64,000 bases of DNA from Phoronis australis (lineage: Eukaryota; Animalia; Phoronida). A program made the translations under genes and the position numbers. The DNA lies in assembly GCA_002633005.1 (NCBI GenBank), contig NMRA01000264.1, positions 62,001-126,000 on the forward strand. Reading direction: 5' to 3'. This document shows positions 20,086 to 60,000 of this stretch, in pieces. Within the stretch, counting starts at the first letter, position 1. Every line of letters begins with the position of its first letter. The notes beneath the pieces are model-generated. The model was given only the letters and a program-made list of their open reading frames with translations, ran no database searches and was not told where the DNA came from.

Positions 20086-22372
20086 ATGAAATTTCTCGGA
20101 TTTACGCTTTCTGCTGTTCTGTGTGTGATATTCGTAAGTGGTAAGAGGCTGTTAAACGCGTGTTATGACATTCAAAGACCTGTTGCTTTTAGTTAATTAT
20201 CATTTAATTGTATTCACTTTTAATCTTAAAAAGGCGTGTTAATCAAAAGCCCGAATTATGACATACGATGCGTACTTTTGAGTCAATCTTGTTTTGTATA
20301 TTCTTTTAATGGAATAACATTTTTGAAACATTTTGCAATCCAATAGGTATGCGATTTGTTTTTCCACAAGAATATGTACTGAAATTTTATCGGTCAGATT
20401 TCCCAACAGTGTGATGCCCATTTGTTTGGACTAAAGATGGCCTCACTCTTACTTTTCACCAGTTAATAAGAAGAGCCTCATGGAAAATAAATAGAAATTA
20501 TTTAACTCATTTCACCACTGTGTGCATGCGCGCTATCAAGTCTTCAATTTCATAAAAAATTATTGTTAATCAACTGTGGCGGCCATTTTGTTTGTGCATC
20601 GTAAGAAATTAAAAATTTTAGAGATTTTGTATAAGAGACAGTAACTTTGAACACTTGCTGTCAGCTTGTATCACTTGGGAATATGTTTTGACTAAACGAG
20701 TTTGCGTCCAACATTCTTTTGTAAAATGCTTAAATGAATGAAGCTGACACAGCTTTTTCAATGTTACCCAATGTAGAAAATTTATTTAATCGAAAGAGCA
20801 GTTTTAGGTTAATTCAGACAAAAGACACTTTACAGCACATTTACACCAAAAAGATGCTCAAAGTGTTGGGACTTCTTCAGAAAACTGTATTGATTACCAA
20901 GATATTTTAAGTTTAGTTATATGAAGTGCTTTATTTTTGTGTCATAGTATTCGCTGATGACATGACCAAGAAAAGTGGTGGCAAAAGTCAAAGGTGAGTA
21001 GAATTTACATATTGCTTCTATCAAACTAATGTTCCTTTAGATTTTCTAAAATATTTCAAATTATAGGATTCTGTACAAGAATAAGTAAACTTATCCAAAG
21101 TCGTACGGTTTGCATTAGCAGAGTTTGCCTCCCCTAACACAAGCTGTGTCAATTGTGGCTGTTTAGAATCATTACCCTGTATGTGAACTTGCGCTTGTAT
21201 GTGAGCGAACTGCGGCCCACGCACCCATACGTGAATTAAATACTTGAGTAAAACTGAAGGACCAAAAGCTTAAATTAGCATTCGAGTAAAGGTTGAAGAA
21301 CAAAATGTTAGATATTGACGTGTTTTGGATTTACGATTAATCAGCTAAATTGAAAAGTACTAACGATTAACAAAAACACACAAAACAGTTAAAGACATGC
21401 ACAGATACAAGAGCCATTTGACTGCGCCTGCAAGTCTTATATGAAGTTTTGGTGCATGCACCTATGCGCGAAACACTTGAACTAAAACAATTTTTGTAAA
21501 CCTTACGTATTATTCCGGACTTTCGCGCATGGTTCTAAATACGCGCATCTACTGTAATTGCCGAACACAAAGTTTGAATCTGCGTGATATTTTTGAAACG
21601 ATAAATGGTTCATTTCACTAATTCAATGTTGCTGTCAATAAGCCAACACTAATTTCTGTCACTGTTTTATTATTTGCTTTATTTCCAATCTGTTTCACAA
21701 ATTTGGCATAATTATCTATGAGCTCGTTGAGTTGTTTATCACTGACAATATTCTAAAGCTGGAATGGAACATTTGATCTTATATCTGCAAATAGTTTAAC
21801 TATGCCAAAATCAATATTCGTATACTTTTGAATAACAATAATAATTCCAGAATTCGCCTCCAGGAAAACTAAAACTTGCAAATTTTACATATATTTACAA
21901 TAATCTGTGATCACCTTTTCAGTATTCGTTGAGGCATATACAAGTTTTTGGATTTTCCTTTCATTCATCTTGAAGTGGAGTCTTTCGGTGATGTTTAAAA
22001 AACGTTGCCAGGAAGTACACAAGTTGCTATCTTTGTTTCAGAGAAACTTGTGCTCTGGGTTACCAGCCGTGCAGCAGTTCCCCCGGAAGTGGGAAACCAA
22101 CTTGCTGCGAACCTCTTACATGCGTATTTGGTAAATGTATGTTGTGTCGCGCCAACTACGGAGCGTCTTGCAGCGGCACATCTATCCTGGATTGCTGTTA
22201 TCCGCCCACATGGAGGCCCGACAACAACCAAGTGGGGTCACGGTTGTACTGCGTTGAAGGATTCTGTGATGTTTGTGCCAAATCTGGACAAAAATGTTCC
22301 ACAAACGTTCCGTGCTGTGGTGGTTTGACGTGTACTGCAAACGCGGGAAGTGGCGACCAGTATTGCAGATGA
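20086..22372 (+). CDS. Secreted triple-ICK (knottin) toxin-like precursor, 3 coding exons
   Basis: join(20086-20140, 20948-20993, 22042-22372); all GT-AG with consistent phases 1 and 2. Product: MKFLGFTLSAVLCVIFVSVFA | DDMTKKSGGKSQR | ETCALGYQPCSSSPGSGKPTCCEPLTCVFGKC-ML-CRANYGASCSGTSILDCCYPPTWRPDNNQVGSRLYCVEGFC-DV-CAKSGQKCSTNVPCCGGLTCTANAGSGDQYCR*. AATAAA at 22419. Confidence 0.88.
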
Positions 22373-25118: not shown

Positions 25119-27602
25119 ATGAAGTTCCTGCTGCTTCTTACGCTACTTACGGTAGCAGTGGCCAACAAAGCACATGGTGAGTTAAGCTCGTGTATTTTTA
25201 CTTGAGTTTAATTTAAAGCCTACTTTGAACAGTAGCACGCGTGCATTTGGTTGCTACAATATGCTTTGCCCATCACCCTCAGTGCTCCTAAGCCATAAGC
25301 TTAGGCACATTGACTTGCATTCGTCTACGTCACTGAGAGAATCATTATATGGTGTTTCATTCAGTACAACTTTCGACCTTCCTTGACACAATGTGGCGCG
25401 AAAAGGCTAATAAGCGATTTTATTCAAAACACGATTTGAAAGTCGTGTTTGCTTACTAAACTATTGCAATGACCATTTGGTTAGTCCGTTCCAGAGGAAG
25501 TTTAAAAACCTCCTTGGTTTAGAGATACTCCTTCACCTTAATTTTTGTCGAAATTTGATCAAGGTAATATCAGTGCAAAACTATTCAATCGAAACTTATT
25601 ACCAAATGATGCTAGCTTGCCATTCATCAATCATATTTTCAAACATAAAGTTTAATATAGAATTGTTACGTTTGGGTTCTTGAATTTCTGATGATGCACC
25701 ATTAAAATGGCCGCCACTGTTAAATAACATTACTCATCATGGTTGCTTATCACGGCGGGTTAATGTCAATCGCCGAAGCAGTGCGGTCGTTGTCAGAATT
25801 TTAGGCATTTAATTGTTATAAATTTCAATAATATTCATACCAACGAAAAGAACACTAAGACGAGGCTTTGGAGGAATTCGTCCTTGAAGAAAGCCCCCGA
25901 AACCGGGACAAATACATTACGGACCAGGGGCTTGTATTACTTTACTTCCGTAATTTTACGACGTGTTTACTCAGAGTATAAACGAAGACTTTGGTCCAGA
26001 AGCTTTAAATATACATAATTTTCACTTCTAGTTCTATCGTGTTTGCAATATCAAACTAAATTTAACGACGAGACTCACTGATACTTTGGTGTTTTTTATT
26101 CATTTATTTGACAATTTCAGTTGGTTCTGTTGACGGCGCAGCTGAAAGAAGACATTTCGTAGAACGCGGGTAAGCTGTTGTAGAAAAACTAAATAAAAAC
26201 GTTCGCCTGCATCAATTTTAGCCGAATTTGAGTGTTTTTTTTTTTTGAAAAGTTGCGTCACAAATGCATTTAGCAAGGTTTGAAACGCCGCAATTTTCCA
26301 ATAAAACACAAATCTCGCATCTCTAGTGCTTGTCTGAGTGTATTTTCTTTTTTGTGTATCCACCTACCTCAACCTTCCCTGTTTACACTTAATTTTCACT
26401 GTCGCTGTCCCGGTGCTGTATCTTTCTAGTTCAACACGTGTGTATACCCTCATTGCTTCATTGGACCTCCCATACTGCTGTTCAGTTGTCCGGCAGATTG
26501 TCACCCACCTTTACAGCTCAACAAATTATATAACTTTTGTAATTATCGATATCTGTAGTAGTTTAGTTTGTCATTATATATATGACCTTTTATCTCACCT
26601 ACACGTGTTGTTTCACTGTGAACTAGCGTCGATATCGCTTCGCTTTTAGCGCATATAAATGCAGGTTGGCTGTTCACTGAACTTGCTGGCACACCATGGT
26701 ACAAATGCAGTGCCGCTTAATAACCAAACCATGTATCAAGTTTGTATTTACTTTACGAATTGTTTGTGTACTGGAACGTTCTGAAACTCGATGAAAAAAC
26801 ATCACACGTCATAAATAAACACATTTTTCATGTAATTATCATTTGATATTTATGCAAAATTTCTCCTAGCGATTTTTCGTTCATCTGTTTTTGATCGGTA
26901 GCGTTTAGTATTATTCTGACACCAAAAGTTTGCGTTTATTTCCAATTTGACAATAAAGGCAATTTCGCTGAACTAATTTATGTGATTGACTACGTATTAT
27001 CTAGTCAAATCATCAAAAAATGTGAATATTTGTAAAGCATCTAGTACTCTCCTCCCGTATTTACCTTTTTATAGATGTCCTTTTAAATGCCCCAAAGCCA
27101 ATCCCGAGGCTAACTTAAACGCGGAGAATAAACGTCTGAACGATAATACAGTTGCCTTGCACTGTTTTGACGAATAGGTTTCACTCATGCGTGTCTCCTT
27201 TAAACACGCCGAGAGGAGGCAGCACAGACGGGGGACCTGTCTACTTTTAACAAAACCCAACACCATCTCCATCTGGAGATTAGTAAAAACATGATCTTCC
27301 TTTCTTTCAGAATTTGCGGCTATTATGGAGAAAGGTGCAGCGCCCTTAAACCGTGTTGCAGGATGCTTCAATGCAATTCGTGGGGCCGTTGTGAAACCGC
27401 TTGTTCTAGTAGCGGTCAGTCTTGCAGCTCCACCGGCATAGTCAGCCCTCGTTGCTGCGGCTCGCTGCACTGCGTGTCTGGCCGCTGTGCCTCGTGCGCA
27501 CGTTCCTGGCAGGAGTGCTCCTACACTGTTCCATGCTGCTCGGGTTTGACTTGTAAATGGGGATCAGGTGGAGCCAGTTACAAATATTGTGATCCCAATT
27601 AA
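25119..27602 (+). CDS. Secreted triple-ICK (knottin) toxin-like precursor, 3 coding exons
   Basis: join(25119-25176, 26121-26169, 27311-27602) with consistent phases 1 and 2. Product: MKFLLLLTLLTVAVA | NKAHVGSVDGAAERRHFVER | GICGYYGERCSALKPCCRMLQCNSWGRC-ETA-CSSSGQSCSSTGIVSPRCCGSLHCVSGRC-AS-CARSWQECSYTVPCCSGLTCKWGSGGASYKYCDPN*. Confidence 0.88.
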
Positions 27603-31550: not shown

Positions 31551-33143
31551 ATGCATCCTTTTCTTGTGGCGTATTCTGTCTTCGTTGTTGTCAACTGTCT
31601 TTGGTGCAGCCAAGTAGAAGGTAAAGAGATCTGTGTATTTATCCAACAATGATGTACAAAACTACAGATTATAACTCGGTAAAAGTGTTATTTTCTGAAA
31701 GTTGACAGCCTGTAGGATTTAATTTTTGACTTTATACCAATCTATTTTTAATTCTGTCACTGGTCAATATGTTTCGGTAGAATTTAACAAAAAGAAATGT
31801 AAATTCAGAACAAAACAACGGTATCATTAAATATCGAATTTTGTTTGTTATAAATGTCCAAGATGATATCCCATTGTCTGTCCTAAATATCATATAAGTC
31901 CTGTTCATTTCCTTGTGTAAAACCGGAACATTTTAAAAACAAGTCCTAAAAGGGTTTTGGAGAATAGCTATTAAAACATGGCTTCTGATAGTTTCCAACA
32001 AGTCCGACCAGCCATTTCTGAGATATGAAGTTCCGAAGTTAGCCAAATTTGGCGCCATTTTATGGGGTCCTACACAACCTTAAAAAAGAATGTGTGATCA
32101 GGAGGCCAGTATGTACCTAACGAGGGATGTGAGATGTGAAATATTAAAGAAATGTTTATTTCGACGAACAAAATATGAAACCAAAGGGTTAAAGATGGGA
32201 AACTTGAGCGAAAACTTGGAAAAACTCAGGACTTTTGGGACTTAAATCCGTCAATTTAGGGGCCGAAAAGCAGACCCATTCCAATAATTAAAAAGTAACC
32301 AAAACTAATGGTGGCTCCGTGGTCAGATGACCTCTCGGGTCCTTCACGGAGTCTCCATAAGCGTAAATCTGTGTCAACTGTATTTTTTGTTTTTGACTTA
32401 AAGTGAATAAAGTGTATTATTATTATTATTGCTATTTTTATTATTATTATTATAATATAATGTTTTGCTTACTTGAGGCATTGCTGACAGGGGTGGCGAC
32501 GGGGGGGGNGGTGGGGGGGATTTATACTCGACGAAGAACATCTTTCCTCTCAGGTGAGTGAGGGTCCTGTAAACTCTAGTAAACAGTTGTGGTTTAGAAT
32601 CAACTCAATGGTTACATTTTTTAAACAAACGTAACAAATTATACGGTGTACAGTGTGTAATAGAACAGAGATCTCGAAATCATTTGAGATCGATGAGATT
32701 GCTAGTACGAAAGGAAAGCGTGTTCTCTAATAGGTTAAAATTCATTGTCACTTTTTATTATTGTAGCGTGCGCTAGTAGTGGACAAACCTGCAGCGATTA
32801 CGGCGGCATATTTCCGAGATGCTGTCCACCACTGAAATGTGAAATAATGACGTGCAAACGTCCATGCGCAAACCAAGGCCAAAGTTGCAGTTCTTATGGA
32901 TCACTCTATCCCAGATGCTGTGGTTCGTTACAATGCCGGAGCGGCCGTTGCGAACTGAAGTGTGCAAACCGCGGACAGATGTGCAGCCAATACGGGAGTT
33001 CGATATTTCCTCGATGTTGCGGTTCGCTGGAATGTAAGCTGAGCACGTGTCAGGAACCTTGCGTTGACTACGGACGGTCATGCGGATATGGGTCAAACTG
33101 CTGTAGCCCTTACACGTGCAAAAATGGTCGCTGCACATGGTAG
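31551..33143 (+). CDS. Secreted quadruple-ICK (knottin) protein, 2 coding exons, no propeptide
   Basis: join(31551-31620, 32767-33143), phase 1. Product: MHPFLVAYSVFVVVNCLWCSQVEA | CASSGQTCSDYGGIFPRCCPPLKCEIMTC-KRP-CANQGQSCSSYGSLYPRCCGSLQCRSGRC-ELK-CANRGQMCSQYGSSIFPRCCGSLECKLSTC-QEP-CVDYGRSCGYGSNCCSPYTCKNGRCTW*, with 24 Cys in four C-C-CC-C-C units. Confidence 0.9.
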
Positions 33144-36942: not shown

Positions 36943-37578
36943 CTATTGCCATCGCCTATCTGCGCGTTCTTGGGGGATGTTGCTAGGGATGGGGCCGTCA
37001 GGGGATGTTGTCATGGCTGGAGTTTCAGGTGTGGTGTTGCGCGGTAACCCGATTGGGCTCTCGAAGCCAATGAGTTCACCCTCGGGAAGTACGTCATCAC
37101 ACGAAGTTTGGTTAGTATGGTGCATGTGACGATGAATCTCCTCTGTCAATGAGGTGTTGTTGGGAAAGGGGTCGTCGGGGGTTGTTGTGGCAGAGCGGCT
37201 CAGTGTTGTGTTGCCCGGGGGCCCATTTGGGCCGTCGACGCCACTGGGTTCACCCTCGGGAAATATATCATCACACAAAGCTTCGTTAGTATCGTGCAAG
37301 TGGCGATAAATCGCCTCTATCCGAATTCCCTGCTCGACAAGGTACCGCTCAGGTACATGAAGGCGTCCTATCAAAGCTTCGGGAACGTCAGGAAGTAGAA
37401 ATGTGTGCACAACAGCCACGCAAGGATTATCGTGTGCGTCGCTGACAAATCCTGGAGATCCAGAACTTCCACCGATGAACTTCTCGCTCGTATGATAGAG
37501 CGCCCTCCTTTGATCTTGAAGGCAATGGAATGCGTCAACACCCAAATGGTGGAGTGACCAGTTGCGCGCTTCGTTGTA
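36943..37578 (-). CDS. Terminal protease exon with the catalytic Ser and a duplicated 58-aa tail
   Basis: YHTSEKFIGGSSGSPGF...VAVVHT; CTCTTTCAG acceptor; 174-nt internal duplication. Confidence 0.88.
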   Translation of the reverse strand, partial: YNEARNWSLHHLGVDAFHCLQDQRRALYHTSEKFIGGSSGSPGFVSDAHDNPCVAVVHTFLLPDVPEALIGRLHVPERYLVEQGIRIEAIYRHLHDTNEALCDDIFPEGEPSGVDGPNGPPGNTTLSRSATTTPDDPFPNNTSLTEEIHRHMHHTNQTSCDDVLPEGELIGFESPIGLPRNTTPETPAMTTSPDGPIPSNIPQERADRRWQ

Positions 37579-40500
37579 CTGAAAGAGAGTAACGATGCTA
37601 AACCGTAAATGGCATTGTGACTACCAACCAACCAACACGTGAGATTTACAAGACACGAGAGAACTTTTTATAACGTATAACCATCAAACCTTAATTTTCC
37701 GAATGTGCGACTTTTGAAGTCGCTGTCCACCATTCTTATTCATATAACCCTATTTGAAGGGAGCTCACATGACACGTTCAACGAAGTGTCTAGGGATGAA
37801 AATCAAATAAGTTCATCATGTGTAACCTGAAAGCAATTTGGCTATTACTTTTATGTAAATACTTAGAAATTATCTCATTTGAGAATTTTTTAATATTGCA
37901 ATGTGTTCAGTTGTATGGGTATACGAATAAATACATACTGCTTGAGTTAGTTCCGCTGGGGTCATGTGTACTACTGCGCACTGTATGTCCGCAATCTTGG
38001 CGTGTCCAAGAGGATGGCCAGCAAAATGGACTTTGTTGTGCCTGTCCAACTTTTTGAACTTAGTTAATGCACCTGGAAGCGGACTTTCTGGGTCAACCAT
38101 CAACTCCAACACGGCATAATCGAGATCCACGTCGTAGATGACTATAGGGTTGGGAGCTATATTGAAGGACGTGTAACCTGCTTCGTCGCCACCTTGGTAG
38201 GGTCTGTCGAAATTGAACAAGCAAGATCGTTGGCTTCGTCGTCTCGTTTCTTCCGCTGAAACAAGCTCCAACACATAAAAAACCTTCACAATTAACCAAT
38301 CAGACACCGCCGAGACCCCATTAACACAAAGTATTATGGGATTACAGTCACCCAAAGAAACACCCTCAAAAGACGCAGATTCATTTTACATGCGTGCACC
38401 CAGGGTTAGGGGCTCGCGGGCTCGAAGTGGACAAAGGCCCGCCTCTGAGAAACAAAAACTCCGAAAAAATAGAAAACGAGACAAAAATGCACTAAAAAGA
38501 CAGGAACTATCAAAACTCGGCGAATGCACAATTCATAGCTCTGAACGTACCCCATGAATCTTAGCAAAAGGTCCAAATTCTCAAAAATTCGAGAAACCCA
38601 TTTTTAGGCTGGGTGCGCGCATGTTTTAACAGCATATCAAGCAACCAGAAACTCAGTTTATCGTACGTGCGAGTAGACAAGAGGCACGTGTCCAATATTT
38701 ACAGACACTTTACCGAGCAGACGACTGCCTCCGTGACGTTTCCTCGGTTCTTGATTGGCGACTCCTACTAATCTACGCTCGCTAGGAGGCGCACGGATTA
38801 ATTTCACCGCTACTGGCAAAAAGGTCAATGACAGAAAAGCAGGGAGACGTAAAGCGCAACACGAGAGAATCAACTGAAAAGCTCTAACACAGACAAAGTG
38901 CAAACAACACCAGCTGTCTATCCCTACTATCTTGGCTACAACCGACCACTGTCACCTAAACCTCTCAAAAAATCAGAAATAGGTGTTCAAATGCCAATGT
39001 TTGTGTCATTTCTCATTTTTAATTAAAATTGTAAAATGTTGCATGTCATCAGAAAGTTTATCTGTTACTCTTTCAAATAATAGCACGTACCTCGTTAAAT
39101 TGTTATACATGTACGATTGTAATTAGCTTACTGTTAAACAGGACATACGTGCGAAAGTGTAAGTTGCAAATGCTGTTTATCATGTTTCGTTAACACCGGT
39201 CATAATCTCGACAACACTATTCCGACACCTTCACACCCTCATGGATCTGTAACAAATTTGACCATAAACCGATGTATGTTATGACTCTTTCAGTACAATA
39301 TGCAGAAAATTATGAGCCGTTACTAAGCTTACTTGAGGTGAAAGGGCAACGCTTCGCCGGCGTCTGCTGGATTTTTCAAGCCTGTGCGATCTCTGTTGGA
39401 TTCGGTAGGAGCAGAGAAAATCGGCGGGAAATTTTAGTAGGATTCATCTGTGTCTTAGATGTTTGATAGGTTGAATCTCAAGCCTCTTCTTCGGTTCACA
39501 GACGGATTTTCAATTCTCACTACAGTTTTCCGCGGATTTTCTCAACTCCGACCGAATCCACCAGAGGGTGCACAGGTTTGAATAAGCCAGCAGACGATGG
39601 CGAAACGTTGCCCTTTCATCTCAAGTAAGTTCAGTAACTACTCATAATTTTCTGCAAATTAAATTTGACAATCATTGAAATCTGAGATTTATTAACACAG
39701 TTGTCCACCGACTCAGTCAGGGTTTACGGTTCCATTGCGCCTATGCAGGGTACACCGCATATCACCAGTTGGTAAGCAGCCAACTTGATTTATTAAGTTT
39801 GAGGTTTGCGACTTTAGCTTGGCCTAATAAGTACTACGTGAGACCTGAAACATCGAGTTATTTCCTTACTACGTTCCCAAGAGTTTTGAAACAACGGACG
39901 AAAACCGAGTGGGAAAGGAATAAACAGTAGGAACTCTTGTTACAAGCTGAACGGACGATGTCGCCTATAATGCATGTTTCTGGCCAAAGTTGCCCGTTTT
40001 GGTCCGTCCGCGGTACGATTCATCAAGATATTAAATCAGAATCGGACGTTCTGACAGGAGCTCCATTAGCTATGAAATGCTACACAACAGAATCGCATCG
40101 ACATGCTAATCTATAGCAAGCTTAGACGTATGCAAAGAAGGTGCTCAACTGTGAGAAGCGAATACTGAGTACCATCAACGAAGTACTGAGTTTGTTGTCT
40201 ACAGTTTACTGCCTTTCTGTAGAAAAAATGCGGACTAAACTGCGAATAAAGTCTGAAGACTACTGCTGAAATTCTATCCAGTGGTCAAAAGAAAACCGCC
40301 GTTCATAAGACGCTTGGTGAATAAACCACAAACTTGACTGCAACTTTTGAATCACACATACTGTAGCCGTCAGTGTTGATGAACATTTAGAAAGATTCAT
40401 AATGAAAATTTTGATTTTGAAAGAGAAATAAACAGTAATCTTTCATCACGCTTTCTGGCAGTATACAACACTACACGTCGATTTCCGAACTTTTTTGATA

Positions 40501-43500
40501 TGCTTGTAAGCAGTTGAGTATTTTTATTCACTCTCTGACCACTTGGTAGTCGAGCCTAAAACGGCATTATAACACGACACTCATACTTATGTCATTTGAA
40601 TGTCGTTATTCGTGACTGAACTGGTCAATCAGGCGCTCTATAAACCTGACCGTGTAAACAAAGCAATTAGACGATGACAGTTCATCAAAGCAGGTAAAAC
40701 ATGCCAATTTAATAAGGGCCGAAAAAATCAGATAAGAGAAACATCAGTGGCTGCGTGTAATGAAACAAATATAGAACAACCCCTCGTTGGAGCAATGTTG
40801 CAACATCGCTCTCCCTTGGTCCATGTGATCAGGGTACGGGGTCTAATCTTTATACTCTAAATATAACTCGAAATCATTTTTGGCATTTTCTGAACTATTT
40901 TTGAGATATGTGGCTATTGGTCTACGCTCGAGTACATTATGGCTTATCCGCACAAGTTTCTAGTCAAAGTTTTCATTTGATGACGCCTATATTCGTGCTA
41001 CAAACTCGAGTAAAAAGTCGAAATTTCGAGTTCAGTTTCGAACCTTTAGCCTAATAGTGGAGACATTAAGTGCTTGCTAACCAGGAATAGAAAGTTATCC
41101 ACGAAAGCCATTATGAACTCGAGCATAGAGTAATGGACACTTATTTTGAATTCGAACAAAAGTAAAATAAAGAATTCCAAAAACAATTTCGAGCTTGAGT
41201 TCGAGTAAAAAGATTGGATCCGAGGCTCTGATATTGCTCTGGGATCAGTCCCTATCAGTAAAATAATCATGAACCATAATGACGCTTGGCTACATTTTCT
41301 TGAGTACTAGTGTGACTGGAGCTGCAATGTTTTACTACCAGCTTACCAGGAGAGGGCGCATCGGCTTCTTTTACAACATGGTAGTTCGTCATTAGGTAAC
41401 GCGTACCCACACGAAATGCAGTACCATTCTGACCATTTGACCACGTCAACTTGGCTACAGACGAGAATGCATGCGTCAAGGACTTCATGAAATGACCAGA
41501 TAATGTGTCCTTGCCCAAGTGACGCGCTGGCCCAGAATCACGTGGTAAGGGTGCAAATCTTTTCTGAAAAAACAGAAAGACTGCCAGTATAGTAATTTTA
41601 GTTCCCAGGGCTCACAATGAGGTGTCAACAGGTCGTGTGAATACCTTTGTACTGGATACTGTGACTACTATCTCATTGGCAGTAATTAGTAAACTGCTTT
41701 TTCCCAATCATGACGTTAGTGTTGGACATGCTTGTCCCAAAATAATCAACTATGAAATGTACGTTGGTAATATCACACTGATTATTCTGCAGTTTTAGGG
41801 TTCACAGAACGGATATTCCACTTGCATGAGTGAATTAAAATCAGATATTTGATAGTTTTGCACATTAACAAAATTCATAGACTTTAGATGAACCAATAAA
41901 CCTCCGATCAGTAGACAGATAAGTTCATTAGTTTTCACGGGACGTTATCTTAAAAGTTCATGGTTTACAAGAAGAGCGAATTCTTCAAAAATTCTTATAC
42001 CGCATACGTCTTGATACNNNNNNNNNNNNNNNNNNNNNCCCCCGTACAACAACCGTGTCACGTGTAAGTCCAATACACACACAGACACATGCACACACGC
42101 ATACATACAGAGTAGTGGAGCAGTTAAGTGCAAAAATCAGAAGAATCATTAACTTCATGATACAAGCACCAAATATGGTCTGTGTATCCAACAGAGAGTG
42201 TTGTTTCATAAAAGAACGTGAGCCACACAAAAAAAATCAAAATGGCACCCATTTTCAAGATGGCCGTCATTTGCTAAGTTTAATCTCAAATGTTTTTGCA
42301 CAGAATGGGGTTTTAGCAATGTTTTTGATTTTGGTGTCAAAATATATGTAATTTTGCACGTGAAATCTAAAGTTCTATGCTTGAAATAAATATTATGAAC
42401 ATTAGTAACACGTTTTGCTCGTTTTATCTGGAAAGAGGGAAAATATACCCTCAACGTAGAGGAAAGTAACGTCCACCTGAAATACGCAGAGATCTGTTCA
42501 CCACTTCCGCTATGGATAATATCGATCACAATCCAACTTCTACAACGACCAGCACATCTTTTCACGGAACAAGCATTTCTCTATTTCAGCATCCCACTCA
42601 ATAAAATGATGGAGATAAGCTGCAGTTGACAGGCAGCAAGACAAAGATAGTTCCTGAACTTCCTACCTCTTATACGAACGTTCGACCTGCAACAATAGAC
42701 AACCACGTCCTTAAGCATTTGCCTTACCATTGCTCGACATCAACATGCTACAAGCACAGCGAGTCTAACATGGTCTGCCCATTATGCAGAGAAGAAAAAT
42801 AGTGCTACATATCAGGCCTGTATGTCTGCTATGATGCCTTTGCTGAGAGATGAAGCTCAGTCTGTAGCCACAGTTCGACGTGCAATGGATAAGATCAGAG
42901 ATGCAGTGAAAACTCTGGACAAGTGCTTGTGATCAATGCGGATCAACCAATTTACGTGATAGCAAAGCAGTGACAGTGGCAGTGGCCTGAAGAGTACGCT
43001 AAGCAGGGGTTTACACATCGAAATGACCGCGCTACGCTCTCTGGATTTCCTTCTTCAAGGCAGTGGGTGACAGGAGCTCTAACTGAAGCAGGCTCACCTG
43101 GCACAACTGATTCATTCCTGAGGACTGGTGCGAACGTCGCAAACCACAGAGCCCTAAGTCTCAGTACTGGCATCTTGAGCTGTCGATGGAGTTAGTCACT
43201 CTGATTTTCATCAGGTCTTTGAGAGAAGCTTATTTCAGTCTCTATCGCCTTTCTAGGGTGTGAGCTGATCCCACGCCTGTTCGCAAACAACAATGTGAAC
43301 TATGCACGGTGGCTTCCAGTTCACTGCTTGACATGATGACTTTGGACGAAACACATCCTAAGGTTGCAGCAGCTTTTAATGATGGGAAGTTCGTTGTCCA
43401 TAAGTCAGACAAAGCTTTTTCTGCAATGGTAATCGACCAAGCCCATGAACAGGCCAATACTGTCATCAAAAGTGATGGTGTAATGATTGGAATCACCGAA

Positions 43501-46500
43501 GACGCAATAGCCCTAAAAGATGGACAGTTGCTGGCCCTGTTGTCTGTCAGCTCATAGAGCAATTTGAGGAGTCATTAGTGTTGAGAGATGCGACCCACCA
43601 GACAAGCCACCACGAACAGAACGTGACCAATCAGAGAACATTCATGGAAAAGGTACAAAGATTGACCAGCACAATAGAGGGAATGGGCAATACATTTGAA
43701 GAAGAAACTGGAGATCTGCTGAGCCTGGACAATAAAGATTTTGCTCACCAAAACGGGACCGAAAGGGTGCTTACACAACTCTCAATTAGGAAGGCGTGCT
43801 TTGAGGAATTTATAGCCACACTAGAGAGTGAAGACACTGGCTCTTATGCTCCTATAAAAAAGGCAAAGAAGGATGACTGTAAGCTGATTTCTAGGCTATT
43901 CATCTCCTGTCGGAACAGAGAATGTGATGTACAAGTTTTTTTTTCTCCACGAGAATCAGCCATTCCCAGCAGCTCTCAGCAACGGCGGAATTCTGCAGGT
44001 CTGCCAGAATTCACAGCTAGCTGTCATTACTGAAGCCAAGGTTACACTGCCTGATGAAGAACCTGTGATTGATGCCATCATAATCGATGGCTCAGCTCTG
44101 GTCAGTGCCCTGCCTCAAAGAACTTCGAAGACATTTGTAGAGTATGCCCTGCTGGAAATTGTCCTAAAAGTTAAATCATGGGTCATGAAATATCAGAGAA
44201 CAGACATTGCATTTGACGTTTATATAGCATCCAGTCTGAAATCAAAACACGATCGAAACGTGGACATGGCGCCTGACGCTGGGTCACAGGGACTGGAAAG
44301 GTGCCACGAAGCTGGCTTACCTTCTTCTGTCATTCTGCCAACAAAATTGGGCTGTTTGAATTCCTGGCTCTGGTTTGTCAGCCCAGTGCGTGGAATGGGG
44401 ATGGAATCAAGAAGGAGACAACTGGACAGTTATCTGAGATGCACGGCTTTGTGTAGCTGTGTGTGCAATGAATGAAGCATTCATGACCAAAGCGATTTAC
44501 TGTTCATTATCTGTTCAGCAAGTTTTGCAAAAAAACAGTCGAAAATCGTAAAATAGTTGTTTTGCCTGAGTAAAATAATGTTTGTATTTGCAGCTATTTG
44601 TACATTATATTCTAAGATGTCTGAAATGCATGAAACGATGTTTAAATAAACAAAATTGAATAACTAGGTCGAGTGATATCTACAAAATGAAAAACCAAGG
44701 CCCCGATGGAGGCCATCCTGAAAATGGCCGCCATTTTGCTTTTTCACGTGTCTAACAGCTTTTTTAAATCTACACCCTATCAGAAATTTATGTGCCAAAT
44801 TTGGTACTTGTATCATAATTGAACGGTTCTTCAATTTTCTACTCCACTAATAAAAACGTACAAGATAATTTGCTAGTAGATAACATTTGTTGAACACGCA
44901 ACGAAGACACAGAGATCTCGGCGAATATCTTTGAAAATTATCAACAGTGAACATTGTTGTGTGTTCAAAAATACATAACTACAAACTTCCATATATTTAT
45001 ACATCAGAATAATGTGACAGCACCTCATGTGAGATTTATTGTTAGGCGTACAATTTTCCTGGAAGCAGATGTACTCCCCACCTTTTGAAGCCTTTATAGT
45101 ATACATGCTTACGCTATGATCCTTACACCATTGCTCTAACTCACCGCGGGAGGCACTGTGCTTTCCGTAAACACATCGTAAGCACGTTTCCTTTGAAATT
45201 CACGTGTCACAGAGAAGGAACATTCAGCAGACATGCCATAGGCCGTTCCTCTGTTTAGCCTTGATTCATGGTGGATATCAAAGGGGTGCTCCTTGCGTAG
45301 ATGGGACTTAGCATGATTCTGATCTGCATCGGAAAACATAGGATAGGATTGAATCTATTGAAAAGTGAAACCTAATTTGATGACGGATGACAGAAGGTTG
45401 ATAAACAAAAACACAACAGTCAAATATAACATTATAGATGATTTAATAAAAAGGAAATTCCACATGAAATGAAAGGCACCAGAAAATACAGACAGCATAT
45501 TATATGGTTCTCTTAAATGCGTTTTAGCATCGGAGATATGAAACACTAAATGAATGAACGATTAGGTTACGCAACACTGATGTGGACTATCTCAAGAACT
45601 AAGCATCCTCGAGCTAAATTTACATTGTGGAGATCTGGGCATTTTAGAGTGCAATCACTGAACTGGATAATGTTATCACGTGAAATTTGGACCGCTAACT
45701 CACCGAAAGCGTCAAAACCAAATGGATCGGTCCCAAAACAAGATACTAAAACATTGAATATCAAAGACGGGTCTGTGGGTCTGCATGGTGCTTTGAACAC
45801 CAGGGGATTCACAATGAAATATCAACGGGAACGTTTGTGTGCGAATTCCCTAAATGAGGCAATTAGTACAGTCCGTGCCATGTTTGAAAAACACACCATG
45901 AACGTAAGTCCTGAATGAAAATATTTTTAAGATCATAATTAAATCAACTATTGAAATGCGTTCACTGACAGACGATACCAAAATAGTATGGACATGAAAG
46001 CAGTTTTTACACGATTCACAAAAGCCTAAAAACGAATATTGTCTTGTGAAAGGAAAATCCTGATGATAATTTACATACGACAAAGAAACTCTAAATGTGA
46101 TACCTCTTGGTAGGACGACATCCACAGCTACCTTTCCGTTGGCGCTGTTCTCACATGGAAGATATTTTCCCAACTTTTCTCTCGCCTGCAGCAGCTTGTC
46201 AGCAAGAAAGAAAGACGGTGTCTCTTGATCACTGGTCAGACAATGAGGGCACAAGTACATTATGTCACAAGGAGCCCCGGGCCATTTTTTCATGAGGCTC
46301 CTTATACCAGTGTAGGCATGTTCAAGTTTCGACCACAACGACGAAACGTCATTCCCCCATAAAGCCAATGCGACAACTATGTCAGTGCCTTCACATTTTC
46401 TAGTGAACAATGCTTTGTCGTCGTCCTTTTCCAAATAGATGCCGTCTTTCCAGATCATGAAATCCAACAAAAAATCTTCAAACAGCTGACGCAAGAGGAC

Positions 46501-49500
46501 CATAGCAAGCTCAAAGAAGCCTTCAGGACACTGCATGGGAAAGCAAAAATTGAGCTGGTACTGATGTTCGTTTGACAGGCGAGACAACAATCGTTCTTCA
46601 AGAGCGGTAGGTTCATCATTGCTGAGAAACCAAGGAAAGAGCAGTGCTTCGACGCAGTCTTCTTCGCTTACAGTGAAGCACAGGAAAAACTTCTTTAGAA
46701 GGTGAATCATAGTTCTAAACATGTCCTCGTCTGTAACGATACGTTTCAGTAAGCAGTGTAGAAGTTTTGTCGAGATCTGGCCATGCTGCAAAAAATTCAC
46801 CTTTTCCAGTTTAAATGCTGCTTTACTGAAACATGTCGCAAAATCGGAATTACTGTGGTCTAGCAACCTGTCCATATCATGATGAAAGATGGTTTTCAGA
46901 AATTCTACAACAACATCACATCTGTGGAACACATATTGTCGAAGTCGAATGTCTTCTTTGAACCAAAGGAATATTCCACACTGGTGCTGATACTCGAGAA
47001 GAGCCTCTGCAGTCTCATGCGACTCTTCTATTGGGAAACCATTGTTGGTCAATCCTTGGCGTACAATTTCACAAAATTCATCATGCTTGATGAAACTTTT
47101 CCTCCTCACATCTTCTCTATCCATTCGGTCCTGTATGGTTAACCAGGACGCTGGAAGGGTCACGGCTTTACGCTTACAACAGCTGATCAGTTCAGACTCA
47201 AGTTCAGCGATACCCTGCAGGGACTTAGAACTTACTACAAACACGTGATCAGATTGAATCAAATTTGATTCGATTGACTACAATTCCCTGCCTTTTTTGT
47301 CTTCAATTTCCATGAGATATCTTGAGTAATTACGAAAATCAGCTCTGTCGTCTTCTTTGGAAGATTTTAACGCCAGCTCTATGTTGCGCAGTTGAGTTTT
47401 GATACATTCCACCATTCGCACTTGTTGTTGACAGATACGAGATGTTACGTCCGCTGTCGCGGTTTTGATTTCTTCATCAGCACAGTAGTCACTGTGAGTT
47501 CCAACAATAATCACAGTTGCCCTGGGCGACATGAACATAAGTGACTTCAACCAGCGGCCAATCATGTGGTCATATTTACCCTTAGAGTATTTGAACAAGT
47601 CAAAAACTAAGAAAGCTATAATGCCAGAGCATAGAAAGAAAGTGTGTGCTAGCTCATATATATGATGGCCCCCAAAGTCAGTGATATGAACTTTCAGCTC
47701 ATCATTCACATTCCAGATGTATTTCTCGAGAACATGTGTCTGTTCATCGACATCAGTTAGGTATGACTTTCGTTCTTTCATTGTTAGTGCTAGACTGGTT
47801 TTGCCTGCTCCAGTTTCTCCTAAAATAACGATTTGTTGCTTGGCGATGGCACATTCACTGTGTCGCAAATCTCTGAAATATTGAAATATCGGGCGTGTGC
47901 CACTTTTGCAGATTTCGACAGGCGGCCTTGTTAATGGGTTTCCATCTAGACCAATGTAATTCAGTGATTCGCATAGATCGATATAGAGCGGAAGCTGGTA
48001 CAGGCTGTTACCGCTAAGGTCCAGCTCCTCTAACTTCTTCAGTTGACTGACCTCATCAGGGAGCTCAGATATCTTGCAGTTTGTACACCCAAGAGAGTAT
48101 ATATTAACGCACTTGCAAATGGCTTTCAAATCAGTGATTTCGTTGCGGGATAAATCAACAATACTCAGGTCTCTAAGCTGCCTTATGTCATTTGGAATGC
48201 TCGTCAACTTGTTCCCACCCACTCGTAGCTCCTGCAAGTTTCTACACTCACAAAGTGCTCCGAGGTCACTTATCTTATTGTTGGAAAAATATACACGCTT
48301 CAACTCTTTTAAGTTCCCTATTTCAATGGGAATGTCCTTTAACTCATTTTGAGACACATGTATCTCTTGCAGGTGTCTACATTCACAGAGTGCTCGGAGG
48401 TCGCTAATCTTATTCTTAGATATATAAACACGCTTCAGTCCTTTTAAGTTCTTCATTTCCTTTGGAATTTCCATTAGTTCATTTCCAGACATATGAAGTA
48501 CCTGAAGGTTCACAGAAGCGCATAATGCCCTCATATCACTTATTTTGTTGTCGGTTAAACTAACAAATTCCAACTCTTCTAAGCTCATTATCTCGGTCGG
48601 AATATACGTTAATGTGTTGCCCGTCATGTACAAAGCTCGCAGCTTTAAGCATTGACAAAGTGGAGCCATGTCACTCAACTCATTGCCGGATAAGTCAACA
48701 ACCTCCAACTCTCTTAACATCTTCATCTCAATTGGAATATTCTTTAACACGTTGCCGCGCAGATAAAGCGCGCGCAGCTTTATGCAATGAGTAAGTGGCT
48801 TGATGTCATCGATTACGTTATTTGACAAATTCAGTTCGTTCAAATTTAACAACTGCTTCATATTGCTTGGAATGATCTTTAAGTTATTGTCGTGAGCAGC
48901 AAGAGTTTTCAGCTCTCTGCACTGGCATAGAGGCGTAATGTTGTCGATCTGATTGTTAGATATGTCAACGTCCTTCAACTCTCTTAACTTCCCTACGTCA
49001 GTTGGGATATCCTTTAGTTTATTGCTGTTCACGTACAATACTCGCAGTTGGGTACACTCGCTCACTGGGGTAAGGTCTGTGATCTCATTCCTGGATAAAT
49101 TTATTTCTTCCAATTTCGTTAGCATCTTGACACCACTCAGAATGAACTTTAAGTTATTCTCCTGAACATCGAGAATCTTAAGACTCAAAAGTAAAAATGT
49201 CACTTCAGGGATTGTTGTCAGACAATTACCTGATATGTTAAAGTGTACGAGATTCTGGCAATAAGCAAGACCTGCAGGAATTTGAGTGTCTTTTAAGTAC
49301 ATACAGCTAAATACTACGGATGTGCAATTTTCTAATTTTTGCAATATCCCCGTATGTTCCTCCCGATTAGTGTCAATTTTTGACAAGAACTCCAACGCTG
49401 CTCTTCCCTCCAACGATTCTTTCTTTCTACAAGAAATAATAAGACAAGGTTAATCAGTGTCAAAGTTAAAGCAAGACTACGCACGTTTTGAGTAGGCTTC

Positions 49501-50747
49501 AAACACATGCCACTGACTAGACATTTGAACTGACTTACAAAAAACTGCAAAATAACGTAGTTGCTATTCACGTAACGGACCGATGTGCATTAACACAGGC
49601 GTGACGGGGAATGTATAACATGGCCCGGATCACAGTATTTATTATTATTATATTTATTTATTATAGTGACATAAGGGTGCCAATAAATACAATATCAAAG
49701 ACAGAATATTCACCACACCCCACAGCCTCGATGGGCTTACTCAGTCACCTAATAATAATTAAATCATTACATAACATTTTGCACAAGCTCAAATATGACC
49801 ACTTCAGACCAGTTTATAAGCAAACAATTACTTCTAACCTGCAAAGCGTCTTGAATGAATTTCGCTAGACCTTTCAAGTTATTTTGGAATATTTGAGGTA
49901 GGGCAGAATCCCGTATAAAGTATGGTCGAATGTGAGTATATTTTTCACAGTCAAAAATGAAATGAACTTCATCTATTCCGTCTTTACAAACACGACAAAT
50001 TCGCTCATTCACAGGAATTCCGAAGTACCGCCCCACCTCAACCTCTAATGGTAAAATACCTGCTCTCAATCGAGCTATGACGGAACTCTGAGACACCGGC
50101 AGACGTAAATACTCTTCTACACAATAGTCATTCTTAACTGATTTATATAAGTACAGTTTTGGTTTCTCAGTGATTACTTTTAATCAGTTTAACTCTTCTA
50201 ACTGGAACCTGAATGTTTTGAAGTTTTCGAGAGACACAACTTGCTTGTTCCTGAAATTTTCTAAAAAGTCACACTTCTCCATAATTTTAAATATTGAACT
50301 TGACCAATTACAGGAGTTCCGATGTTTGAGGTCCCATAAAAAGACTTTTTTGCAATTCTGCTTTCATAGAACTAAAAAAAGCCTTTCCCAGTTGCCACTG
50401 ATCACTTCAGTTTTGTTCGTGATTCACTCACCTGTTCATCGCAAAAATCCTCCCGGTCGCCACTCATACCTCCATCGCCTACAAATTATCTTTACTCTCT
50501 CGAAGCATATTTGTGACTACATTTCATTAACCACGATCGATTCGGTGACTTGTGTTTGAGAGCAGAACGCGGGTGTTGATTCGATTTTATTGTTCGTGAT
50601 ATCCGACTACGTTGATTAGCAGCATGAGTTTATAAATATAACATTGGTTTAAAGACAATCAAACTTGCATTTATTTACTCACTGTTCGTCTTCATTTTCA
50701 ACGTCATTTTCATCCTCACCAGGATCAAAACTCTGGTTACAAGCCAT
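36943..50747 (-). CDS. Roco-family LRR-ROC-COR protein fused to a C-terminal FAM111-like trypsin-fold serine protease (6 coding exons, ~1578 codons, one in-frame TAG)
   Basis: complement join(50747-50683, 49426-46104, 45323-45145, 41563-41347, 38255-37939, 37578-36943) totals 4737 nt. All five introns are GT-AG and the phases match (2,1,0,1,0). The start context is ACAATGG. Internal TAG at 47280-47278. Confidence 0.72.
37939..38255 (-). CDS. Protease exon with the catalytic Asp
   Basis: DLDYAVLEL and HFAGHPLGHAK motifs. TTGTTTCAG acceptor and GTATGT donor. Confidence 0.88.
38389..38623. mobile_element. Second copy of the CATGCGCGCACCCAG MITE, in opposite orientation
   Basis: Same TIRs; 5-bp direct repeat TTTTA at 38384-38388 and 38624-38628. 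Confidence 0.85.
39301..39657. mobile_element. Foldback/MITE-like element with ~140-bp imperfect inverted arms
   Basis: TGCAGAAAATTATGAG...GAAAGGGCAACG at the left end is the reverse complement of CGTTGCCCTTTC...CTCATAATTTTCTGCA at the right end. Confidence 0.8.
41347..41563 (-). CDS. Protease exon with the catalytic His
   Basis: SVAKL...GTAFRVGTRYLMTNYHVV, the typical trypsin-like (Trypsin_2/FAM111-type) N-terminal motif. TTTTTTCAG acceptor and GTAAG donor. Confidence 0.88.
42113..44849 (+). mobile_element. Decayed, internally deleted DNA transposon, Academ-like, inside an intron of the Roco-protease gene
   Basis: Imperfect ~150-bp TIRs with TAGTGGAG...CTCCACTA termini. Frameshifted ORF pieces contain DQAHEQ, LISRLFISC, HENQPFP, IIDGSAL, DIAFDVY and a terminal C-x3-CSC-x-C. 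This fits my recollection of the Academ transposase/XPG-like nuclease/Cys-finger protein and its TAG termini. Confidence 0.7.
46104..47277 (-). CDS. End of ROC (G5 VVSSK) and COR domain of the Roco protein
   Basis: Same frame as the upstream ORF. VVSSKSLQGIAEL is followed by LPASW (COR start), LLFPWFL and a C-terminal CPHC...C motif. Donor GTATC after position 46104. Confidence 0.9.
47278..49426 (-). CDS. LRR array plus most of the ROC GTPase domain (Roco/MFHAS1-like)
   Basis: About 20 LxxLxLxxNxL repeats ending in LDGNPL, then the P-loop GETGAGKTS, G3 DFGGH and G4 VGTHSD. Confidence 0.95.
49640..50390 (-). mobile_element. 5'-truncated LINE (non-LTR retrotransposon) 3' end
   Basis: KPKLYLY...ARLRAGILPLEVEVGRY...ERICRVC...DEVHFIFDCEKY is the typical C-terminal Cys/His region of LINE ORF2. 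It contains stops and ends in an (AAT)-rich tail near 49640. Confidence 0.85.
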
Positions 50748-55800: not shown

Positions 55801-56699
55801 GAAGCCGGATCTTGTAAAATTCCGCACACATTGCTGTTCTCTGTCCGATGTCGTAACGAGAACTGTCTATTTAAAAAATGAAATTTTAGTTGCTTGGAGG
55901 TTCTGTTTCTATTGTTTGATTTTGCACGTTTTTCCCTGGATGCCCCCGGCCTGCAGAAGCACTTTAGAAAATTCTTATATTTCTATGTGCTAGGTTTGTA
56001 TACTAAAAACCTCCGACACGTTTGCGTTTGGCTTGAGTACATGCCCCAGCGCAACAAAGACAGTGAATCTACCGACCATGCCCAATCTAACGCGCAAACC
56101 AAATGAGGCACTTACGACAGTAAGACACCCAGATGAGAAACGTTGTGTTTCAACTTAGACTACTAGCTAAATCTAGAGCGATTTAGATATAGGACGACTG
56201 CTTTTTTTTGCTAAATCTAGACCGATTTAGATGTAGGACGAATGTTTTTTAAAATGTCGCTCAACAATTAGATCCGCAAGAACAAGCCCATTACGCGACA
56301 GGCATTACATTAGGGAAATCGATTGCCATGAGCTGTGGGTTGTGATATGCGGTGAACGCACCACATCAAGAACTTTAAAATAATATGAATTAAGAAATTA
56401 ATTTCCTGGTGTATTTCTAGGCGTAACACGTCGATATTTCTGGGGCTCACTGTTTACCGTGTTGAAACTTTGACTCTGCTGGAACAAATACACCCAGGAT
56501 CCGCACTCTGCTACAACCAGTCTACCCTCGCTCGACTGAATAGGCTCAGTACAATCTTAAATACTTTCAGCTTTCAAACAGTCTTCAATTCCTTGTCTGC
56601 TGGCAACGTACTGAATTGATTTGCTCGTTTTTGGCTTTTCGCATTTAGAAAGGTAAATAACATGTAAAACGCCGTTTGCTTGTTATTTTGTTATTTTGT

Positions 56700-56968
56700 T
56701 AGTACTATTATCATCATCGTCATCATCATCATTATCATCATCATCCATTAGCATCATCATCAATCATCATCATCGTCGTCATCATCATCATCATCAGCAT
56801 CTTTATCATCATTATCGTCACCATAATCATCTTCTTCTTCATCATCATCATCGTCACCATCATCATTATCATCATCATCATCATAATAATCATCATCACC
56901 ATCATCATCATTATTATCAACATCACCATAACCTTCACTATCATCATCATCATCACCATCACCATCAC

Positions 56969-57004
<36 letters not shown>

Positions 57005-57060
57005 CATTATTATTGTCATTGTCGTTGTTGTTGCTGTTATTGTTGTTGTTGTTCTTCTTC
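56700..57060. repeat. Compound trinucleotide microsatellite (CAT)n/(TAT)n/(TGT)n
   Basis: Directly visible in the sequence. Confidence 0.97.
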
Positions 57061-60000
57061 TACAGTCAAATCAGTCCAAATCTAACAATTTCTTGGCGGT
57101 TCTAGTATGGACAAAAACGAATGTACAGTCTGCATGTTAACCGGACATAACTGTTGAATGGAATAGACGTCTAGCTTTGATGAGAGATATAAACAACACA
57201 GTCCGTTTGGTTTTGGAATTTTGTTACAGATTTTCCACCATATATTTAGTTACTGAAATTAAGGTATCAAAACAAATTATCATATAACTGAGGTGTTCAC
57301 TCTGTGCCCTTGCTAACGCGGAGGATTGGTCTTTGTGACTACGTTTTTGACTCCATTTTACTGACAAGTAAGGAAAGACTGGAATCAGAAATACTAGGAA
57401 TTGTATGACTGTCTAAACCGGCTTGAAGGGTCTTTGGGCAAAGCAGAGATTGTCTGTAAATGACGTTTGCTGACTTAAGGTTCTACGACAAGCAGAACTA
57501 GAGCATTCCATAGAAGCAAGACTCTCATGAAAGACCAAGATCACGCAAGATCATGCCGCATCGCGCAAAACCACGCCAATGAAAGGCAAGTGATTCAGGT
57601 GTACGTTCAAAACCTTGCACAATGGCGGCCAATGAAGTGATTGGTCGGCACGGAAAGAATTTTTTTCGTTGGAAGACAGTGTCCATGATCCTAGCAATAC
57701 CACAACATGTGATAAAGTTTCTTTGTGGGAATATGAAAATGCCAAGTTCTTGATTTCGTCTTCAACATTCAAACGCTTTGAACAGATGTACAAAAGTGTA
57801 GCGTGCACAATACGAAGACATTATATAAGTGTGGAGATTGGCATTTTATCGCTGTATCAATTTGCGTTAAACTCTTAGTTGAGAGAACTTGAAAGCATAT
57901 TAGAAAAGCGATTAAAAATTCACTACCGATCCAATATTCCACTATATTATTTTTCAAATTTCGTGCTCATGGCCTTCTGAAAAACGAAATCGACAATTTG
58001 CCATATGCAATTTACACCTGATATGCGTCTCACAAACAATGTGTATTGCAGTTCACATACCTTATACACTGGCGTCACACACTGGTGTGCAATACACAAG
58101 CGTATATTATAAAAAGTATTCGGATATTTTAGCAACAAATTAGTATGCTTAGTTATTCGATATTCCACTTTCACAATCAGGGTCTTGTTTTATTGTTGTC
58201 GGAGACCCGCGGTTACACAATTCAAATGCGCAATACAATAGACCCTGGGGGTGACTAGATGACGTTTTCGCAAAATACACAGTGAACTCGTATTACTTTA
58301 TACTCCGTTAATTTACTAGCTACCCACTCGCTGTAGGCAATATCAGTTATCGACTTAATGTTTTCCCTGTGGTCTGATGAGACGCACGTGATTGTGAAAC
58401 CTGTAGAGTGCAGCAGCGGATCCAGGATTTAGTTCAGAGGGTCCACAGGGACAGACATAGGGAGTGTTTGAGGATCCTCATTACAAAGCAGGGCAGTCCG
58501 AACCCCCAGACCTCCGTTGGAGCCGGGTCTGCAGGAGTAAAAATAAAATTTTACAATATTGTAGAGTTTAAATCGGCCCCCATAAGTATAAAATAGTAAA
58601 AAGTTTTAACACTTGAAAACGTTTTTCAAGGTCCTGTAGTTTTATTGAGTGATACAATTTGGACGCCGTATGAAAATAAAATTAGCATAATTAAGCCAGA
58701 AATTCATTAGCATTAAAGAAAGTTAACTGGCATATTTTTCAATCATTCACATAATGTGTGGCAAATTTCCAAGAGTAATTTCTGGGAAAACTTATCTTAC
58801 GGGAGTAACAAGATCGATAAAACCAATCGAAAAGGTAGGTTTCATGCCGAACTAAAAACAACTATTGTATTCCTTTCTTGAAAGTTTTCATTCTAGCGCT
58901 TCTTTTAAGTTCAATTTGCATTTCTCTCTTTTAACCAAAAGTATTGAAATTTCAGTAAGTGTTTCTTAGGTTTTGACATCAGAGTAAAGCGCGTAATGGT
59001 TTAAGACAGTGCTGTCATGAAGAGGATTATTAGGTTTTATAATTTTGATTTGATCAATCCGCTTACATTCATTCAGCGGTAGTAATCTTTAATACAAACA
59101 CGAATCCCTTTCTTTGTCTGATTCTAGCCAACTCATTTACACGTGTCTTAGCGCATACAGTCGGTCCGGATTGCTTCATGCAGCGGAACTCGGCTCGTTA
59201 TTACCTGAATACCGTTGTATACACCTGTCCTGTTTAATAACTACCTCGCATGCCGCCCTCCTTATAATCGCATTCACTTTGCCGTCTTTATGTGACACAC
59301 TATCTGTATAATTGAGAAATTTATGTATAATTCTAAATACGATTCATTATATACCAGTTAAACTAGAGAACGTCAAAATCCACAAAATATGCAGACGACA
59401 GCACAGGTTGCATTGTCCGCTGACAATCACCTGCTTTTCTGGCCAATCAGTACTCGACTAGTCACTGCTTATGCTCCGCCCCAATGCCCCACAAAAGGAA
59501 GGCGCGAAAATCCGACCAGCTGTTTCAAGGTTGATCATTCCAATAAAGAGAAGAAGAGATGGTTTTCTTTGTTATTGCTATTGTGTCCATAATTATGTGT
59601 TGATTATTGTCCACGTGGTGATTAAAGGAAAACGACACTAAAGCGCAAAATACTAGTGAAAGTCTCCACCGAAAATAGTACAGGAGCCCTATTGTGGATT
59701 GGCGTAATAGTTAGCTGAATTTACTTCTCGAAAACTTGCATTCTTACACCTACGTATATTGTTTATGAACAGTGCGCGCTGTACGACTTTTGTATTGCTC
59801 ACAATGTCGGCGATAAAAATCCTATCGTTTGCGCGAGTTCACGAAAAAAATGCATTCGGTGTGCTATCAATTACATTGTTGCCGATAAAAAAAATCGCGA
59901 GGCCTCCCGACAAAAAATCGTATCGTGTAGTCTGACATTTATGTAATAGTACTGGTTGCTTTATTATTTATTAAGTATACTTTCTGAAGAGCTGTTTCAA

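Follow-up and report, generated by a model that had tools for sequence, protein, structure and literature searches.

A predicted LRR-ROC-COR gene with a FAM111-like protease in Phoronis australis, carrying a premature stop in the assembled allele

LRRK1, LRRK2 and DAPK1 are Roco kinases, and the FAM111-type proteases have antiviral and replication roles in mammals. In our study, a 64,000-nucleotide stretch of the Phoronis australis genome (contig NMRA01000264.1, positions 62,001 to 126,000; called the window hereafter) was found to contain, on its minus strand, a predicted gene in which leucine-rich repeats (LRRs), a ROC GTPase domain and a COR domain are followed by a FAM111-like protease. 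The DNA is of animal type, with spliceosomal introns. The reading that we prefer, for which the chances seem slightly better than even, is a single gene for a cytosolic LRR-ROC-COR protein with a FAM111-like protease, predicted to act as an innate-immune sensor, switch and effector, whose allele in the window is null owing to a stop codon in ROC.

MFHAS1/MASL1 and its invertebrate homologs in Lingula, bivalves and cnidarians contain a kinase-free LRR-ROC-COR core, as does the gene described here. Human MFHAS1 is described as LRR and RocCOR only (PMC6337361), whereas the window gene adds a protease; the tail of the Lingula relatives, in contrast, was a CARD or nothing recognised. Group 3 of the brown-algal ROCOs and other SAR (stramenopile, alveolate and rhizarian) ROCOs have the same LRR-ROC-COR-peptidase order, with a C-terminal IPR009003 domain (PMC11378527). 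Three brown-algal ROCOs carry a C-terminal peptidase, and the family was proposed to consist of immune receptors (PMC11378527). The brown-algal LRRs lie on separate, shuffled exons (PMC11378527), whereas those of the window lie in one exon, and the two lineages belong to different kingdoms. Up to forty domain combinations are given for animal ROCOs (PMC11378527), and LRR-ROC-COR-protease may be among them. Prokaryotic systems of LRR, AP-GTPase and COR share the sensor, the switch and the swappable C-terminal effector, and the bacterial LRR-AP-GTPase-COR proteins use at least 24 effectors, trypsin among them (PMC8195603). In the source file of Figure 6 of that paper, one AP-GTPase-COR-trypsin fusion was found in the 17 places marked 'trypsin', and it carries VWA, not LRRs. 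Animal AP-GTPase-COR proteins with caspase or Death are listed in its Figure 4 file, and Roco-TIR proteins are described from Aplysia (PMC9334734).

FAM111A and FAM111B have in common with the window protease an intracellular trypsin fold, the LDYAVL and G-x-S-G-S-P motifs and a similar triad spacing. Their N-terminus contains a PIP box and two ubiquitin-like (UBL) domains (PMC9798293), whereas the N-terminal part of the window protein is LRR-ROC-COR instead of these marks of a FAM111A/B orthologue. Invertebrate FAM111-like proteins without UBLs are also described, and the available portions of that paper contain no mention of Roc or LRR (PMC9798293). Similarly, the available portions of PMC2575513 and PMC7159879 contain nothing on a Roco-protease fusion. 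The amphioxus Roco-Trypsin_2 proteins resemble the window protein in that their ROC-COR precedes a FAM111-like protease, with an intact triad, at the C-terminal end; their models have no stop, whereas the window gene carries a TAG. The general design is known, and the animal FAM111-type version is uncharacterised in the databases.

Structure of the gene and its domains

The gene model comprised 1,578 codons in six minus-strand exons, and all five introns were found to be GT-AG with compatible phases, as the initial annotation had proposed; its further claim of one reading frame did not hold, since an in-frame TAG at 47280-47278 had been overlooked. The protein contained, in order, an acidic N-terminus, 20 LRRs, ROC, COR-A, COR-B, a linker, a trypsin-fold protease and a Pro/Thr-rich tail. 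Exon 1 (50683..50747) was predicted to contain the ATG and the acidic N-terminus. An alternative model with a donor at 50719 and a mini-exon at 50478-50432 also keeps the frame, and the 5' structure of the gene is uncertain. No second copy of the gene was found within the 64-kb window.

Exon 2 (46104..49426), a single 3.3-kb exon with low-level RNA on the same strand, contained the LRR array, ROC, COR-A and COR-B. The 20 LRRs (47929..49251, amino acids 81-521, by motif count) were built mainly from a duplicated 135-bp two-repeat unit, and a recent tandem duplication was visible in the array. The ROC GTPase domain (47167..47832; Pfam Roc, E 1.4e-10; best PDB sequence match LRRK2) contained the motifs G1 GETGAGKT, G3 DFGG, G4 GTHSD and G5 VSSK, together with the helical hairpin insert. 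All four G motifs were present at the DNA level, with G5 downstream of the TAG. ROC was directly followed by COR-A and COR-B (46123..47154; Pfam E 6.9e-10 and 9.8e-9). The alignment-based model of ROC-COR was confident (predicted local distance difference test, pLDDT, 90.6; predicted template modelling score, pTM, 0.89), and its top structural matches were LRRK1 (E 2.4e-20), C. tepidum RocCOR (1.1e-17) and LRRK2; it was used instead of a single-sequence fold, which was uninformative (pLDDT 35.9). No kinase family was found in the Pfam scan of exons 2, 4, 5 and 6, and exons 1 and 3 are too short for one. The switch was a Ras-like ROC GTPase and not a signal transduction ATPase with numerous domains (STAND) of the NACHT or NB-ARC kind; a protein with such a switch may act like a nucleotide-binding, leucine-rich repeat receptor (NLR), yet it is no NLR.

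Exon 3 (45145..45323) was predicted to encode a 60-amino-acid linker and runs from phase 1 to phase 0; among the 15 open candidate exons with strong splice sites between exons 2 and 4, it alone had these phases. The splice sites of exons 3 and 4 were strong (97-99.6th percentile of the regional GT/AG sites), on approximate scoring matrices. At the end of exon 2, the donors 46155 and 46132 outscored 46104 and were rejected because the COR end that is aligned by relatives would be lost. The protease was encoded by the last three exons. Exon 4 (41347..41563) contained its start and the catalytic His1251 (codon 41380-41378, in TNYH), and exon 5 (37939..38255) contained the catalytic Asp1307 (38121-38119, in LDYAVL) and a GHP motif. 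Exon 6 (36943..37578) contained the catalytic Ser1406 (37464-37462, in GSSGSP), the end of the protease near 37255, the Pro/Thr-rich tail with an internal 174-bp duplication, and the stop.

When the joined protease was compared with a profile of nine amphioxus Roco-linked proteases, it matched over the full length with 64 bits (E 5.9e-22, for one target sequence), and His1251, Asp1307 and Ser1406 fell in the triad columns of the nine. The LRR count, the Pfam E values and these columns bear out the roughly 20 LRRs, ROC, COR and trypsin fold with His, Asp and Ser of the initial annotation. The His-Asp and Asp-Ser spacings were 56 and 99, against 54 and 102 in FAM111A, in which the triad residues are H385, D439 and S541 (PMC10920703). 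The protease domain of an amphioxus Roco matched FAM111A in the PDB at E 3.1e-10, the next protease being at 7e-4. For another amphioxus protease, the FAM111A cluster of the Atlas was ranked first (0.97), tied with a bacterial trypsin cluster (0.97). Exon 5 alone also had FAM111A as its best PDB match, and no PDB match of note was obtained for exon 4 or exon 6 by itself. The earlier label of FAM111-like was thereby supported, mainly through the amphioxus homologues: by sequence likeness, and not by a tree, the protease is likely FAM111-like, and by the indirect route of these homologues its similarity to FAM111A exceeds that to HtrA or other S1 proteases.

Relatives and origin of the fusion

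With COR as the query, 304 proteins were matched at E <= 0.001, and the 150 best of them were used; many of these records are partial. Among 20 that were looked up, the nearest named relatives were mostly Lingula proteins called 'MFHAS1 homolog', with 30-33% identity, followed at lower rank by amphioxus, bivalve, cnidarian and bryozoan proteins. A local exemplar search recognised a tail in 33 of the 150 proteins: CARD in 11, Death in 10, GT4 with ZU5 in five, GT4 with OTU in two, trypsin in two, and OTU, ZU5 and caspase in one each. One of the two trypsin tails was a truncated start only. The complete protease was present in one protein, XP_078688185.1 (P0019), with the order LRR-Roc-COR-Trypsin_2 (E 7.7e-14). 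A search with the protease of P0019, which reaches close relatives only and gives no range of the architecture, returned 13 matches, all in Branchiostoma; nine of them contained Roc, COR-A and Trypsin_2, and LRR families were listed in five of the nine. Word-based homologue searches with window queries gave no matches, and none of the 96 pattern matches from a COR scan of metagenomes was confirmed.

The initial annotation knew of no characterised animal Roco with this effector. Literature searches, which were judged by listings and the starts of abstracts and covered subscription papers thinly, brought up no article that describes a FAM111-like effector in an animal Roco; on the other hand, nine of the 13 amphioxus matches share the architecture.

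The nine amphioxus proteins fell into two groups, P0019/P0155/P0156 and P0159-P0164. Between the groups the proteases were 38-41% identical, whereas the ROC-CORs barely aligned (E 4e-4 to 0.014), which points to separate attachments of the protease in amphioxus. The window protease was 27-31% identical to both groups. The window ROC-COR was 28-30% identical to the first, nearer group, and it was about equally like this group and the Lingula CARD-Rocos. In trees of 50, 34 and 23 rows, drawn from 108 candidates that covered ROC-COR completely (the second amphioxus group being too distant to include), the window ROC-COR was placed outside the first group, and a constraint that held the two together was rejected at the margin (approximately unbiased, AU, p 0.0499). 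A ROC-COR split with a support of 95 was set aside, as it came from a simpler model; a quick mixture tree does not fix the position of the window. In a protease tree, which was built without an outgroup, the window protein was on a long branch. These sequence comparisons suggest, and do not show, an independent recruitment of the protease. It is doubtful, though conceivable, that the invertebrate MFHAS1-like Rocos form a GTPase parallel to the NLRs with swappable effectors, and that amphioxus, on two or more occasions, and separately the lineage of the window took a FAM111-type protease into the effector slot, because dimers driven by COR are able to gate a protease that dimerisation activates. 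If this were true, a regulated immune effector would be the older job of the FAM111 proteases, predating their role at the replication fork.

Transcription and the stop codon within ROC

Four RNA runs (X1-X4) were used, about 18-19% of each being read. Transcription of the gene was found in three runs, at a low level, on the sense strand and in both halves of the gene. All the reads on exon 2 and nearly all those on exon 6, at a similar low depth, were first-mate-plus, which is the orientation expected for minus-strand RNA in most stranded libraries. The depth summed over the three runs was 0.8-5 per exonic base on exon 2 and about 3 on exon 6; the sense-strand depth on exon 6 ranged between 0.26 and 1.59. 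A contig of run X4 matched 37989-38137 in exon 5 with no differences. Part of the depth on exon 2 stems from a likely paralogue. At 47485-47508, in the G4 region, 15/16, 4/4 and 18/18 reads differed from the window, and partial matches were found at about 47227-47269, in the G5 region; these reads likely come from an expressed paralogue or a diverged allele.

The in-frame TAG (47278..47280, minus strand, codon 738) was present between G4 and G5 of ROC. In the structure model it separates the helical hairpin from the final strand of ROC, G5 and the final helix. In the assembled allele, ROC and COR are not in one uninterrupted frame. If the stop is used, the predicted product has 737 amino acids and consists of the LRRs and a broken GTPase, without COR or protease. 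The relatives were colinear over the TAG column: of 49 rows, 41 contained a residue and eight a gap. By the established rule of nonsense-mediated decay, a message is degraded when introns follow a premature stop; with four introns beyond the TAG, this message is a likely target. A short intron that would splice out the TAG was rejected, since the two nearest GT-AG pairs inspected shift the frame and the relatives are colinear; programmed readthrough was rejected as well, with nothing in its favour. The TAG was the sole lesion in 1,578 codons, without any frameshift, which suggests a recent event. In our view the lesion is probably genuine and of recent date, marking a null allele that still segregates or else a young pseudogene, and the locus as assembled is probably a null allele.

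It is plausible, though less probable, that the species has an intact gene, that the TAG is a consensus error or an allele private to the animal sequenced, and that most animals make the 1,578-amino-acid protein. The single lesion, the intact G motifs and triad, the unbroken frame elsewhere and the transcription in three runs agree with this. Run X1 contained four reads on 47150-47410, all at least 99% alike to the window, with a depth of 2 over the TAG codon; runs X2, X3 and X4 had no coverage of this codon. Differences were listed only from three reads up, and a 151-base read with one mismatch is still 99% alike, so each read over the site allows one difference; however, the change would have to be the only difference of those reads in 151 bases. 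The very low RNA level is also what decay by a premature stop gives, although tissue specificity would give it equally.

Predicted function, other explanations and further features of the window

In an intact copy, the LRRs would sense a ligand, and the nucleotide cycle of ROC would then shift the balance of COR between monomer and dimer. As dimers, the proteins would bring their proteases together in pairs with ordered active sites, as in FAM111A, and the paired protease would cleave viral or host proteins. COR mediates Roco dimers, and in the reviewed model the GTP form is a monomer and the GDP form a dimer (PMC6337361); under this model, hydrolysis would yield the GDP dimer, and this dimer would be the active form. 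Cleavage of substrates by FAM111A needs dimers through helix 1, whereas autocleavage does not (PMC10920703), and the autocleavage assay proposed by the initial annotation would therefore be no readout of dimer gating. The chain from LRR sensing through the COR dimer to protease activation and cleavage is drawn by analogy, and we put it tentatively, at somewhat below an even chance. The immune role is suggested by the swappable death and defence tails of the relatives and by the bacterial parallel.

A number of observations weigh against the sensor-switch-effector reading. The premature stop lies upstream of both COR and protease, and the two X1 reads over the TAG are compatible with the stop or with one difference there. 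The polarity of the switch is uncertain, Rocos being dimeric with GDP and monomeric with GTP in the reviewed model (PMC6337361). No domain was recognised after COR in 117 of the 150 best relatives. The architecture is not unique, being present in several amphioxus species, and Roco-peptidase fusions have already been published from bacteria (PMC8195603) and from brown algae (PMC11378527). At the level of the gene model, the linker of exon 3 had no homology support, the FAM111A match of exon 5 was weak (E 0.12), and single protease exons gave E values of 0.018 and 0.079 against Pfam Trypsin_2, below the cut-off. On exons 3-5 the depth was one or two reads per bin, and no joint of reads or contigs over any intron of the gene was found among the joints listed (15 of 26). 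Intron 3, the key intron between the linker and the protease exons, contained a 21-N assembly gap (42018..42038) and a DNA-transposon-like relic (42225..44751), both overlooked by the initial annotation. The sensor-switch-effector idea of that annotation thus fits the varying death and defence tails of the relatives, and it is weakened by the stop in ROC, the shared architecture and the uncertain polarity of the switch.

A further explanation, which we consider unlikely, accepts the fusion and denies a dimer-gated immune receptor: the protease would cut its own linker or serve in signalling or development, with ROC-COR as a scaffold. The autocleavage of FAM111A without dimerisation (PMC10920703) and the varied cellular roles of Roco proteins (PMC6337361) are in its favour. 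Against it, the domains found at this position in the relatives are CARD, Death, caspase, OTU and GT4, a set described for systems that counter invaders (PMC8195603), and the LRR array shows the recent tandem duplication.

It is quite improbable that the locus holds a pair of genes, one for LRR-ROC-COR that ends after COR and another for the FAM111-like protease, which are adjacent by chance or by scaffolding over the gap: the missing junction reads (the initial annotation had named 46104/45323 and 45145/41563, and neither was among the listed joints), the gap and relic in intron 3, the moderate COR donor 46104 (88th percentile), a poly(A)-type hexamer near 45447 with the COR frame open to a stop at 45852-45850, and the many relatives with no recognised domain after COR allow it, whereas the strong sites and right phases of exons 3 and 4, the equal fusion in amphioxus and the RNA depth speak against it. 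The bin 45367-45917, right after COR, had zero depth in all four runs, while the neighbouring exon-2 bins had about 11-19 reads; this counts against a separate COR gene because its 3' untranslated region would sit there. We infer with good confidence that the COR and protease exons are spliced into one mRNA.

If the reading of a single sensor-switch-effector gene is true, a Roco with a protease output would offer a simple readout of the way in which the nucleotide cycle of ROC-COR governs an enzyme at the C-terminus, a control that is still debated for LRRK2 (PMC6337361). Through the fusion, FAM111-type proteases would also be connected with an LRR sensor in invertebrates. Work of this kind is better based on the amphioxus models, which are intact; the window locus mainly contributes a distant lineage and one case of turnover in the family.

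The relic in intron 3 is noncoding for the gene and has inverted arms of 126 nucleotides (71%) around broken plus-strand pieces of an open reading frame (ORF); it received no name from Pfam or the Atlas. Intron 4 contained a 364-bp palindromic element (39297-39660) like a miniature inverted-repeat transposable element, with arms of 142 nucleotides (84%). In intron 1, a repeat with an ORF piece was found at 49718-50367, related copies of which are transcribed; the ORF piece, which had no Pfam match, resembles the 3' end of a long interspersed nuclear element. A long low-complexity tract of trinucleotide type was present at 56657-57137. Elsewhere in the window, the plus strand contained four cysteine-rich ORFs (3770-4048, 21992-22369, 27204-27599 and 32739-33140) that are related to one another, with a mutual identity of 37-84%, and carry knottin-like repeats in tandem. 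The three that were scanned showed weak Pfam matches to Toxin_7/Toxin_12, below the cut-off (E 0.008-0.03), and together the ORFs may form a cluster for secreted peptides of a defence or venom-like type.

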